Assembly (NCBI GenBank): GCA_963716815.1
Contig: CAVQUM010000022.1
Span: 42,111-106,110, forward strand
DNA: 64,000 bases
DNA from: an uncultured Chloroflexia bacterium
GTDB lineage: Bacteria; Chloroflexota; Limnocylindria; Limnocylindrales; CSP1-4
Direction: 5' to 3'
Positions 33,420-36,901 of this stretch are shown here, piece by piece; position 1 is the first letter of the stretch, and each line of letters starts with the position of its first letter. Below the pieces are notes generated by a model that searched no databases, was not told the origin of the DNA, and saw only the letters and a program-made list of their open reading frames with translations. The translations under genes and the position numbers were made by a program.

Positions 33420-33934
33420 GGTCCTTGATCCCTCCTCGGGTGGGTCGTGTGGGCCGGCATCAGCGCCGGTGGTCGTTCGTCGGTCCCTCTTCTGCCGCCA
33501 CGGCACAGGCAGCGTCGTCGATAGGAACCGAGCACGGCACACCCACACGAAAGGGACACGCTCACGGCAAGCGCACCGTGGAGTATCATAGTCTTCAGCG
33601 TTCCAAATGCAAGACGCCTCCGAGCGCCCCGGGCGTGTGCGGACAGTGACCCCTCACGGCGGTCCTGTGAACACCCGGTGCGGCGCGCTCCGAGGCCAGC
33701 TCCGACGCCACCTTGGCGGGCAGAGCACTTCCATCATGGCGCGCAGCCAGTCGTGATCAGACAGACCTTCGATGCCCACCGGGCCGGTCGTCACCAGGAG
33801 ATCGACACATCAGCAACGACCGGACACAGCACCCTCGACGCGCGCATGGGCAACACCCCGAGACGCGACCGTCGCCCCGAGTGTCCCCCCGCGCAGAGCC
33901 GCCGGACGCGGCTCGCACCACACAGGAGTCCTGC

Positions 33935-35776
33935 GTGAGCAAGAACGTCGCCGTCTTCGTAGACGTCGCGAACATCTTCTATGCGGCCAAGGCCGCTGGG
34001 ATCGATATCGACTACATCACCCTCTTGAAGTCGGCTACGGCCAACCGCGACTTCGTGCGCGCGTACGCCTACACCGGCCTCGACCCGGAGAACGAGAACC
34101 AGCGCCAGTTCCACGCCTTCCTCGCCCGCTCGGGCTACAAGGTCGTGAGCAAGGACATCCGCAAGTACGGCGATGGCCGCATGAAGGCCAACCTCGACAT
34201 CGAGCTCGTCGTCGACATGATGCGCCTGGCCGAGAAGCTGGACGTCGCCGTGGTCGTCTCCGGCGACGGTGATTTCGCACCAGCCATCGCAGCTGTCCAG
34301 CAGAAGGGCGTGCGCGTGGAGGTCATCAGCTTCCGCGGCAACACCAGCAGCGACCTCATGGACGTGGCCGACGTGTTCATCGACATCACCAGCGTGGCCA
34401 AGGTCGAGAAGGGTGTCCGCAGCGGGCGCCGGGTGGCCACCGACGGCGACCTCTCCATGACCGCGGTGCCGGAGAAGGAGTCGGGGGTCAAGCCGCGCCG
34501 ACGCCGTGGCGCTACATCCGATGACACCTCCGAGCGGACCGAGCGGGGGACCCGTACCCGCCGCCGTGGCGGCCGCAAGGTCGAGGCCGAGCCCGCCTCG
34601 GTCGAGGCAGAGGCGCCCGTCGCCTCCGGGGGCGCCGGGCTCGTGGCCCTGCCGGGCGAGAAGCTCTCGCGCGGAGCAGAGGCAGGCGAGGCCTTCGAGG
34701 CTCCTGTCGAGGCCGAGGACCCCGTCGTCGAATCGTCCGAGGAGCAGCCCGCCGACGACGGCAGCGGCAAGCGTCGCCGACGTCGCCGTGGCGGCCGTGG
34801 TCGCGGCCGTGGCGGCCGCAGCGCCGAGACCGGCGACGAGACGGCCGACGAGTTCGGCGACGAGTCCGCGACCGAGGAGATGCCGGTCGTGGCTGTGCAG
34901 GCCGACGAGGTGCCCACACTGCCCCAGCACTCAGGCTTCGGCTCTGTCTGGGACAGCCAGATCGGCGTCCCGGCCGACACCGCACCCGTTGTCTCGGCCT
35001 CGATCGATGCCGCCGGGGATCTCGACGAGCTCGAGGATGAGCCGGCGGTGCCCGAGTACCTGCTGGCCGAGAAGAAGGGTGGCCGCAGTGGCCGCGGTGG
35101 CCGTGGCGGTGGCCGCGGTGCCCGTGGCGGTGGTGGCTATCGTTCCGCGCTCGATCGCGAGCGTTACGGCATGGGTGGCGGCTCCAGCTACGCTCGCGGC
35201 GCCGGCCGCGGCAGGAGTCGCTCCGCCAGCACCCCGCGTGCGTCGGCCCACTCGATGGAGCCGATCGAGCAGACGCGCGGTGGTGATCCCTGGAGCGAGG
35301 TCCCACCCGAGGTGCAGGAGCTGCTGATGGCCGAGCTGGCCCGCCGCGACACCGCCGCGCCACCGGCCAAGGAGGTCGCCGAGGCCCCGGCCGAGGAGAA
35401 GCCGAAGCGCAAGACGACGACGCGCAAGCGCACGACCAAGCAGGCCGCCGAGGCCGAGGCTCCGGCCGAGGAGGTCGCCGAGGCTCCGGCCGAGGAGAAG
35501 CCGAAGCGCAAGACGACGACGCGCAAGCGCACGACCAAGCAGGCCGCCGAGGCCGAGGCTCCGGCCGAGGAGGTCGCCGAGGCTCCGGCCGAGGAGAAGC
35601 CGAAGCGCAAGACGACGACGCGCAAGCGCACGACCAAGCAGGCCGCCGAGGCCAAGGCTCCGGCCGAGGAGGTCGCCGAGGCTCCGGCCGAGGAGAAGCC
35701 GAAGCGCAAGACGACGACGCGCAAGCGCACGACCAAGCAGGCCGCCGAGGCCGAGGCCCCGGCCGAGGAGGCCTAG
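33935..35776 (+). CDS. NYN (LabA/DUF88, PIN-like) ribonuclease with long disordered C-terminal region
   Basis: AGGAG RBS plus GTG; FVDVAN, KANLDIELVVD and SGDGDF catalytic Asp motifs; about 440-aa low-complexity tail. Confidence 0.9.
   Translation: MSKNVAVFVDVANIFYAAKAAGIDIDYITLLKSATANRDFVRAYAYTGLDPENENQRQFHAFLARSGYKVVSKDIRKYGDGRMKANLDIELVVDMMRLAEKLDVAVVVSGDGDFAPAIAAVQQKGVRVEVISFRGNTSSDLMDVADVFIDITSVAKVEKGVRSGRRVATDGDLSMTAVPEKESGVKPRRRRGATSDDTSERTERGTRTRRRGGRKVEAEPASVEAEAPVASGGAGLVALPGEKLSRGAEAGEAFEAPVEAEDPVVESSEEQPADDGSGKRRRRRRGGRGRGRGGRSAETGDETADEFGDESATEEMPVVAVQADEVPTLPQHSGFGSVWDSQIGVPADTAPVVSASIDAAGDLDELEDEPAVPEYLLAEKKGGRSGRGGRGGGRGARGGGGYRSALDRERYGMGGGSSYARGAGRGRSRSASTPRASAHSMEPIEQTRGGDPWSEVPPEVQELLMAELARRDTAAPPAKEVAEAPAEEKPKRKTTTRKRTTKQAAEAEAPAEEVAEAPAEEKPKRKTTTRKRTTKQAAEAEAPAEEVAEAPAEEKPKRKTTTRKRTTKQAAEAKAPAEEVAEAPAEEKPKRKTTTRKRTTKQAAEAEAPAEEA
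35372..35770 (+). repeat. 4 x 99-bp in-frame tandem repeat (EVAEAPAEEKPKRKTTTRKRTTKQAAEAEAPAE)
   Basis: GAGGAGAAGCCGAAG anchors at 35393, 35492, 35591 and 35690. Confidence 0.95.
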
Positions 35777-35785
35777 GCACCGGCC

Positions 35786-36901
35786 ATGGACCGCGCCGCC
35801 GCGCCGACCACGCCCGGCGGCACATTCCTGACCCGCGGCCACGACGCGGCACTCGCAGTCGTGGCCCGGGCCATCGAGGGCGAGTGCCCGCCGCACGCCT
35901 TGCTGCTGGTCGGCCCACACGGTGTGGGCAAGGCTACGCTCGCGCTCGATCTCGCAGCCGGCTTGCTTTGTCTGGCCGGTGAACCGGCGCTGCGTCCCTG
36001 CCGTGACTGCAGCGCCTGCCGCAAGGTCGCGGCCGATGGTCACCCTGACCTGCATCTCGTCGAGCCGGAGGGCGCGGGCGAGCAGATCCGCATCGGGCAG
36101 GTCCAACAGCTGGTTACCGACCTGTCGCTCACGGCCATGGAGGGGCGTTTCCGCGTCGCGGTCATCAGCGCCGCCCAGCGGCTGAACCTCGACGCGCAGA
36201 ACGCCCTGCTCAAGACGCTCGAGGAACCAGGCCCGGCCACCTGCCTCGTCCTCTGCGCGGACGACGCCGCGCCGCTGCTGCCGACCGTGCTTTCGCGTTC
36301 CGCGCGGCTGCGCCTGGCGCCCCTCCCGATCGAGACCCTGACCACGCAGCTGGTCGATGGTGGCCACGCCGAGCCGTCCCAGGCTCGGGCGCTGGCCATC
36401 GCTGCTGCCGGTTGTCCCGGCCTGGCAATCCGACTGGCCTCCCGACCGGAGGCCGTGATAGCGCGCGCACGCATCAGCCGGACGTTGCTCGAGCTGGCCG
36501 CGGCTGACCGCCGCACCCGCCTCGGCGCCGCCGCGGAACTCATCGGCGACGCGGCTGCGCTCGATGCCGCCCTGCGCGGGGAGGTAGCGCCTACGGCGTC
36601 CCGCCTGCAGCCGGTCGAGCGGCGACGGGCGGTCCATCTCATCATCGAGGTCTGGCGCGGCGTCGGCCGTGACCTCGCGCTCGCAGCACGTGGTCAGGGA
36701 CGGGGCGTCCGCGACCTCGATCAGCTCGAGGACCTGCTGGCCCTGGGTTCGCGCCTCGACCCCGTAGCGCTGCATCGCTTCTTCGATCGCCTCGATCGCC
36801 TGACCGTGGCCGTGGAGGGCTACGCCAGCCCCGAGCTCACGCTCGACGTCCTGCTCCTGACCTGGCCGCGACCGAGCCGATCGAAGGCGCGCGTGGCATG
36901 A
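35786..36901 (+). CDS. holB: DNA polymerase III subunit delta-prime
   Basis: HALLLVGPHGVGK, CxxCxxC zinc module, HPD, QNALLKTLEEP, LLPTVLSR. Confidence 0.88.
   Translation: MDRAAAPTTPGGTFLTRGHDAALAVVARAIEGECPPHALLLVGPHGVGKATLALDLAAGLLCLAGEPALRPCRDCSACRKVAADGHPDLHLVEPEGAGEQIRIGQVQQLVTDLSLTAMEGRFRVAVISAAQRLNLDAQNALLKTLEEPGPATCLVLCADDAAPLLPTVLSRSARLRLAPLPIETLTTQLVDGGHAEPSQARALAIAAAGCPGLAIRLASRPEAVIARARISRTLLELAAADRRTRLGAAAELIGDAAALDAALRGEVAPTASRLQPVERRRAVHLIIEVWRGVGRDLALAARGQGRGVRDLDQLEDLLALGSRLDPVALHRFFDRLDRLTVAVEGYASPELTLDVLLLTWPRPSRSKARVA

Follow-up and report, generated by a model that had tools for sequence, protein, structure and literature searches.

The gene considered here encodes a 613-residue protein in which a LabA-like NYN nuclease domain is followed by a tail of about 430 residues that is disordered by composition. 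It lies on the forward strand of a 64,000-nucleotide stretch (the window) of contig CAVQUM010000022.1, positions 42,111 to 106,110, from the 78% complete genome of an uncultured Chloroflexia bacterium (GCA_963716815.1; GTDB order Limnocylindrales). The product, referred to below as the NYN-tail protein, was compared with relatives throughout its class, which was sampled with 61 genomes falling into five families, f1 to f5, the window's own family being f1. Features of the locus are collected in Table 1, which follows the description of the protein.

A LabA-like NYN head and its charge-blocky tail

NYN (PF01936) is the only family recognized by a Pfam scan of the 613-aa protein (E 3e-36; 125.5 bits vs a cut-off of 24.2), the match covering profile positions 1-144 of 145; an NCBIfam scan gave no match. 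Five residues, D10, D88, D94, D111, and D113, are invariant across 92 aligned sequences from three families, and they line up with Asp residues in 2QIP (VPA0982 from Vibrio parahaemolyticus), the only solved relative found by sequence (E 1.4e-18). We take this set to be a PIN-like metal/catalytic site, and its presence within residues 4-151 bears out what an earlier annotation, made from the letters of the window without database searches (the sequence-only reading), had claimed of an intact NYN/PIN Asp set near the N-terminus. Between f1 genera the NYN part is 83-87% identical, vs 38-49% for the adjacent holB in the same nine genomes. The domain is that of the LabA-like NYN group (PF01936, NYN.COG1432, 2QIP) over its full length and in its Asp positions. 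In published descriptions (PMC5499597), members of that group are either short or linked to a folded domain, OST-HTH or another, whereas the tail found here is disordered and about 430 residues long. No OST-HTH/LOTUS domain was matched by Pfam in the 613 residues.

The tail (residues 186-613) is 37% charged with a net charge of about 0, 88% disorder-promoting, and 11.7% hydrophobic; relative to the charge-hydropathy boundary it falls on the disordered side. Its charges are strongly segregated (z = 8.8), to a degree reached by 0 of 1000 shuffles. The sequence-only reading had described Arg/Gly blocks alternating with acidic blocks and, in addition, short hydrophobic islands. Both descriptions agree with the charge segregation and with the translation, the three Arg/Gly blocks being located at residues 186-192, 279-294, and 382-401 and all five islands between residues 236 and 471 (236-246, 335-344, 372-379, 402-412, and 451-471). 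A feature absent from that reading is a tandem repeat encoding the last ~135 residues, with four KPKRKTTTRKRTTKQ units. Homologues carry 0-8 basic units (median 3; 69 homologues), and the sequence of the unit also differs between orthologues, a pattern which suggests that the basic repeats expand and contract rapidly and have done so recently in each lineage. An amphipathic helix was considered for islands 3 and 5 and rejected, their hydrophobic moment being no higher than in shuffles. A count of RG-rich frames over all six frames of the genome was uninformative, wrong-frame artefacts of the high G+C making up most of it.

Conservation of the tail was measured in the 84 f1-type rows of the 92-sequence alignment, with the islands fixed before any alignment was made. 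Mean conservation of the five islands as originally quoted is 0.83-0.92 and that of the poly-Arg/RG block 0.95, vs 0.38 for the non-island rest of residues 186-475 and 0.40 for the repeat region; the islands have been kept while the linkers drifted, as the sequence-only reading anticipated. The poly-Arg/RG block, in which R283 and R290 are invariant across the 92 sequences, is the one tail element present in all three families. In the f2 and f4 orthologues, whose NYN parts are about 66-80% identical, this block, the acidic linkers, and the tandem basic repeats all persist, but the majority of islands take another form there: EIGWxELDDISQ, REYxFEEADAATLAELGL, and a C-terminal EGIWQRFRGAR.

Loss of the tail from orthologues had been named as evidence that would count against a scaffold function, and it was seen in none of the short homologues inspected. 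Among 606 matches to short close homologues, each of the 33 inspected, which lie on long contigs, retains the beginning of the tail and breaks off within it; several end in the poly-Arg/RG block read in another frame. Judged from these frames, the inspected short homologues are frameshifted calls and not tail-less orthologues. A profile built from the tail only (residues 323-475, 11 sequences) retrieved 217 matches among 1.84 billion representatives, and the 20 that were checked contain no enzyme domain except NYN, holB, and acylphosphatase; the matches with holB or acylphosphatase look like read-through or fragment calls. Gene calls P0024, P0135, P0175, P0229, P0243, and P0264 fuse the tail to holB or, in one instance, to acylphosphatase, and four genomes of one genus have the NYN-tail gene and holB in one frame with a single TAG between them. 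In such G+C-rich repeats, calls of this kind are most likely the product of read-through or of a frameshift.

Table 1. Features of the NYN-tail locus, in positions of the window
Feature	Position	Strand	Basis or remark
Shine-Dalgarno-like AGGAG	33924..33928	+	6 nt 5' of GTG start
Coding sequence, 613 aa + stop	33935..35776	+	start = GTG 33935
NYN (LabA-like, PF01936) nuclease domain, residues 4-151	33944..34387	+	Pfam; mean conservation 0.94
Post-NYN extension, residues 152-185 (VEKGVRSGRRVA..DLSMTAVPEKE)	34388..34489	+	conservation 0.85; outside Pfam model and 2QIP match
First basic block, residues 186-215 (KPRRRR ... RTRRRGGRK)	34490..34579	+	translation
Island 1, LVALPGEKLSR, residues 236-246	34640..34672	+	conservation 0.83; motif also in RhlE-like helicase tails
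Acidic block, residues 251-277	34685..34765	+	charge profile
Poly-Arg/RG block KRRRRRRGGRGRGRGG, residues 279-294	34769..34816	+	conservation 0.95
Island 2, LPQHSGFGSVWDSQIGVP, residues 328-345	34916..34969	+	conservation 0.84; 11 tails invariant at F, G, S, W, D, S, Q
Island 3, EDEPAVPEYLLAEKKG, residues 366-382	35030..35080	+	conservation 0.81; EP..PEYL.AE invariant (11-tail alignment)
RGG box then island 4, YRSALDRERYG, residues 383-412	35081..35170	+	alignment, conservation
Island 5, DPWSEVPPEVQELLMAELARR, residues 451-471	35285..35347	+	conservation 0.85; WSEVPPE invariant (11-tail alignment)
99-bp tandem repeat, 4.1 copies, 98% identity	35363..35771	+	four acidic/Ala-rich spacers + KPKRKTTTRKRTTKQ basic units
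holB (DNA polymerase III delta prime)	35786..36901	+	10 nt after stop; neighbour

The reading frame stays open on the + strand from 33713 to 35776, beyond the called start. GTG 33935 was taken as the start because of the AGGAG upstream of it and because 14 orthologous loci start at the same residue, in the context V/M/L-(S/G/T)-(K/R)-N-V; AAGGAG occupies the equivalent place in eight orthologous loci. A conserved 5' leader, as in rne autoregulation, was rejected, since the upstream regions of nine loci have only the ribosome-binding site in common. What lies upstream in the relatives is a different coding gene, and an Rfam search gave no match near the NYN-tail gene.

A tail motif shared with an RhlE-like helicase

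When all six frames of the window's genome were searched with the pattern LPGE[KR]L[SA], two proteins only were retrieved: the NYN-tail protein, in island 1, and a DEAD-box helicase with a disordered tail encoded on contig C3 (G000:C3:57784-59784, +). The same genome searched for the other islands yielded none outside the NYN-tail gene. The helicase is RhlE-like; its orthologue at locus L069 scores 587 bits with NF007882, under the model cut-off of 743. Examination of 24 helicase loci of the f1 family identified 12 with tails of at least 100 aa, and 11 of these 12 display the LPGE motif, for example as RPVALPGERLSRSA. When scored with a position matrix derived from the nuclease island, each of the 11 helicase tails exceeds all 1000 of its own shuffles, and in 10 of the 11 the distance between motif and C-terminus is 0-19 residues. 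In the window's genome, the helicase frame continues 122 residues past the motif, in what is a suspect frame. That frame looks disturbed: a stretch near its N-terminus resembles another frame, and the continuation past the motif runs into the apparent next gene. It may reflect an assembly error.

At the DNA level, a back-translated pattern of the motif gave 35 matches vs 5 for a control pattern in 25 genomes. Thirty motif loci were fetched, comprising 23 nucleases, three helicases, and four others, these last being too weak to count as third carriers of the motif. One of the four is a protein combining a PTPase-like domain (PF25516) with R3H, which has the motif in its disordered part and corresponds to G000:C11:8544-9011 in the window's genome. 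Only a looser form recurs among its orthologues: in three of the four in view (L124/L128, L146, L147, L151), phi-PGERF-GG follows GGVHRSQARPRP, and this may be loosely related to LPGE(K/R)L.

A motif carried by both a nuclease and a helicase implies that both are probably recruited to a common site or partner. Judged from these sequences, the shared motif ties the nuclease to RNA metabolism and fits a hub or a client of such a site equally. A literature search, supplementary files excluded, found neither a published account of a comparably tailed NYN protein nor a description of a motif common to helicase and nuclease tails.

Distribution and the RNA enzymes of the class

A protein search limited to lengths of 337-1073 aa retrieved 2295 matches, and in the best 120 of these the NYN part is 84-99% identical; the named sources among the same 120 are mostly Limnocylindrales or Chloroflexota. 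Across the class, orthologues are present in 17/17 genomes of f1, 3/3 of f2, and 20/20 of f4 (40/40 together), the f2 genomes being 1.1-1.2 Mb in size. Elsewhere in the class, f3 gave 1/19, a weak match, and f5 0/1. By these searches, the NYN-tail protein occurs in three families within a single Chloroflexota class and is restricted to them. Related NYN domains in long frames outside the class occur in different architectures, either C-terminal or joined to tetratricopeptide (TPR) repeats.

Genomes of f3 and f5 instead have another NYN protein, whose open frames span 552-718 aa (loci L055-L059; genomes G025, G016, G001, G013, and G055). Its layout consists of an NYN domain (LIDWENVYY...SGDRD), a folded helical region, and a C-terminal RRGRRGGRGR. 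Its NYN domain has diverged much further (E about 1e-14 vs 1e-37 for the NYN-tail protein), the gene stands beside holB in 0/5 cases, and the two proteins are mutually exclusive in the 61 sampled genomes. Both this protein and MARF1-type proteins, in which NYN is combined with LOTUS/OST-HTH, resemble the NYN-tail protein in having an NYN head, an RNA-binding appendage, and RGG boxes; the difference is that their appendage is folded and helical, whereas that of the NYN-tail protein is disordered.

The sequence-only reading had directed attention to whether RNases E, J, and Y possess intrinsically disordered regions. RNase E/G (PF10150) was found in 0/61 class genomes, 55 of which are at least 90% complete, while RNase Y is present in 61/61 and RNase J in 60/61. 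In the window's genome, RNase Y (529-aa frame), RNase J (560 aa), Rho, and PNPase (polynucleotide phosphorylase) were all found to lack a long disordered tail. The enzyme set of the class is therefore Bacillus-like, and the NYN-tail protein supplements it instead of standing in for a missing enzyme. The absence of RNase E as the reason for the NYN-tail protein was rejected as a simple rule, f3 and f5 being without both. Bacillus, which uses RNase Y and RNase J, possesses a ribosome-dependent NYN-type endoribonuclease, Rae1/YacP (NYN_YacP). That enzyme, which is without a long tail, belongs to a different Pfam family (PF05991), and this family has no match in the NYN-tail protein at E up to 0.01.

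PNPase in the window's genome (867 aa; G000:C1:75861-78461, +) displays an RNase_T/DEDDh domain between its two RNase PH modules. The insert (PF00929, E 1.6e-30, residues 255-406) is carried by all 120 best homologues, and it was matched in 55/61 class genomes from five families, mostly in frames of about 860-990 aa. On this domain evidence, the PNPase of the class is an unusual two-exonuclease form. A link between the insertion and the NYN-tail protein was rejected, the insertion being class-wide and showing no co-occurrence pattern with that protein.

Possible functions and the gene neighbourhood

The explanation that we favour, with a probability of about one half, is that the NYN-tail protein is a housekeeping endoribonuclease whose tail binds RNA multivalently and carries docking motifs, and which acts with the RhlE-like helicase in a network of RNA processing and decay. 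The enzyme would be a single-copy, vertically inherited member of the LabA-like NYN group. Its head most likely cuts single-stranded RNA by means of the metal-binding Asp cluster usual for NYN/PIN domains. From their composition, the poly-Arg/RGG blocks and tandem basic repeats, separated by acidic blocks, would hold RNA non-specifically and multivalently, and about five conserved short motifs of the tail may dock proteins. At least one of these, hydrophobic-x-LPGE(K/R)LS(R/K), recurs in the lineage's own RhlE-like DEAD-box helicase. The NYN-tail protein would then be a node, whether hub or client, of a degradosome-like network beside RNase Y and RNase J as well as PNPase, the class being without RNase E/G.

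RNase E is the textbook bacterial nuclease whose disordered tail assembles an RNA decay machine and a condensate. The NYN-tail protein resembles that scaffold in its catalytic head, its long disordered tail, its Arg-rich, predicted RNA-binding segments, its charge blocks, and its microdomains set in variable linkers, and it resembles the RNase E degradosome in having one motif in common with a helicase family (RhlE) of the degradosome type. The two differ in that their catalytic folds are unrelated, PF10150 being found neither in the protein nor in the class, and in that RNase Y, RNase J, and PNPase coexist with the NYN-tail protein. RhlE helicases themselves have a disordered Arg/Gly-rich tail that contacts the decay machinery (PMC8266600; PMC12767347), although their head is a helicase and not a nuclease; in Pseudomonas, RhlE2 makes an RNA-dependent contact with RNase E through its tail (PMC8266600). 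The tail of the RhlE-like helicase of this lineage ends in the island 1 motif. Very short motifs, rich in Arg or containing Trp, recruit PNPase to RNase E in cyanobacteria (RRRRRRSSA; PMC3964918) and in Caulobacter (EKPRRGWWRR; PMC3376730), and mycobacterial PNPase has RNase E, RNase J, and RhlE1 as binding partners (PMC12767347). On the model of the cyanobacterial site, the poly-Arg block of the NYN-tail protein might bind PNPase; the resemblance is superficial and serves as a lead. Condensate formation by the NYN-tail protein is plausible on similar grounds.

Several observations weigh against the favoured explanation. With RNase Y, RNase J, and PNPase in place, no decay or endonuclease role is vacant, and two families of the class, f3 and f5, do without the NYN-tail protein. 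The shared motif is a feature of f1: the nucleases of f2 and f4 are without it, and among the helicases of three f4, one f2, and one f3 genomes a partial motif was found in one f4 only. Nuclease function is undemonstrated for most LabA-like NYN proteins, according to a 2017 classification of PIN-like domains (PMC5499597). Finally, the occurrence of one motif in two proteins argues for a third protein as its receptor, which weakens the case for the nuclease as a scaffold.

This last point bears on a bolder proposal, in which the NYN-tail protein would be the organizing scaffold of a new, RNase E-independent analogue of the degradosome or bacterial ribonucleoprotein (BR) body, its motifs recruiting PNPase and the RhlE-like helicase network and its charge-blocky, repeat-tuned tail condensing RNA. 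We consider that proposal unlikely. The degradosome-like interpretation offered by the sequence-only reading survives in part: its conserved islands, the retention of the tail, and an island shared with a helicase speak for it, while the lack of a vacant endonuclease role does not, and a client is at least as apt as an organizer. If a scaffold were nevertheless involved, the combination of a nuclease head with a disordered scaffold would have been invented at least twice in bacteria on unrelated folds, and a second nuclease fold with the layout of RNase E would point to convergent design instead of the peculiarity of one family. It would also give the very large and biochemically almost uncharacterized LabA-like NYN family its first concrete functional setting. 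The motif shared by nuclease and helicase offers a directly testable handle for finding the receptor; because the lineage is uncultured, such tests would be heterologous or in vitro.

Among the alternatives to the favoured housekeeping endoribonuclease, a nuclease of ribosome or rRNA maturation and quality control is the likeliest, though doubtful. Its tail would bind rRNA or pre-ribosomes in the manner of eukaryotic nucleolar glycine/arginine-rich (GAR) and acidic proteins, with the RhlE-like helicase as an assembly partner. RhlE-type helicases are also ribosome-assembly factors, and the class is without RNase E/G, an rRNA-maturing enzyme in other bacteria. Extreme conservation in single copy would suit such a housekeeping role, and bacterial NYN genes have been linked to tRNA and rRNA processing by gene neighbourhood (PMC5499597). 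Here, however, no rRNA, tRNA, or ribosomal-protein genes adjoin the gene, the nearest tRNAs being about 20 kb off, and the two families without the NYN-tail protein are difficult to accommodate.

It is improbable that the protein is a non-catalytic, regulatory RNA-binding protein in which NYN serves as an RNA-binding module, as perhaps in the cyanobacterial clock-output protein LabA, and the tail is the functional part. The 2017 classification states that none of the PF01936 NYN.COG1432 members had been studied as a nuclease and knows LabA as a regulator only (PMC5499597), which would agree with this idea. The invariance of all Asp residues in 92 sequences from three families is nonetheless hard to explain without catalysis or metal binding.

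Still less probable is a nucleoid- or replication-linked nuclease, with AT-hook-like basic repeats binding DNA and the holB neighbourhood reflecting a role at the replisome. The basic P-K/R-rich repeats presumably resemble DNA-binding tails, and holB is adjacent in 9/9 f1 loci and in the one f2 genome (1/1) and lies within about 1 kb in 4/4 f4 genomes; no terminator-like site was found between the NYN-tail gene and holB. In f4, however, an oppositely oriented gene stands between the two, so the linkage is positional only, with no common operon. The one motif common to another protein belongs to an RNA helicase, and characterized NYN domains act on RNA (PMC6217404; 10.1101/2024.04.08.588522). 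NYN domains are also known from CRISPR-associated and toxin contexts (10.1101/2024.04.08.588522), but a defence or toxin-type nuclease of a mobile element is very improbable and already disfavoured by a single copy in fixed synteny, by presence in 40/40 genomes of three families with far more conservation than the neighbour, and by the lack of mobile or defence genes nearby in the window.

Downstream of holB, the window contains at 36898-38123 genes for an acylphosphatase and two small cyclic-nucleotide-binding proteins, followed by a Pyr_redox_3 oxidoreductase, all of them ordinary. Contigs from RNA libraries (three runs from two studies) match mainly the NYN part with 85-99% likeness; DNA carry-over is possible in these libraries, and the shares of sequencing runs are all small, at most 0.34. 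These contigs are compatible with transcription of relatives of the NYN-tail gene.

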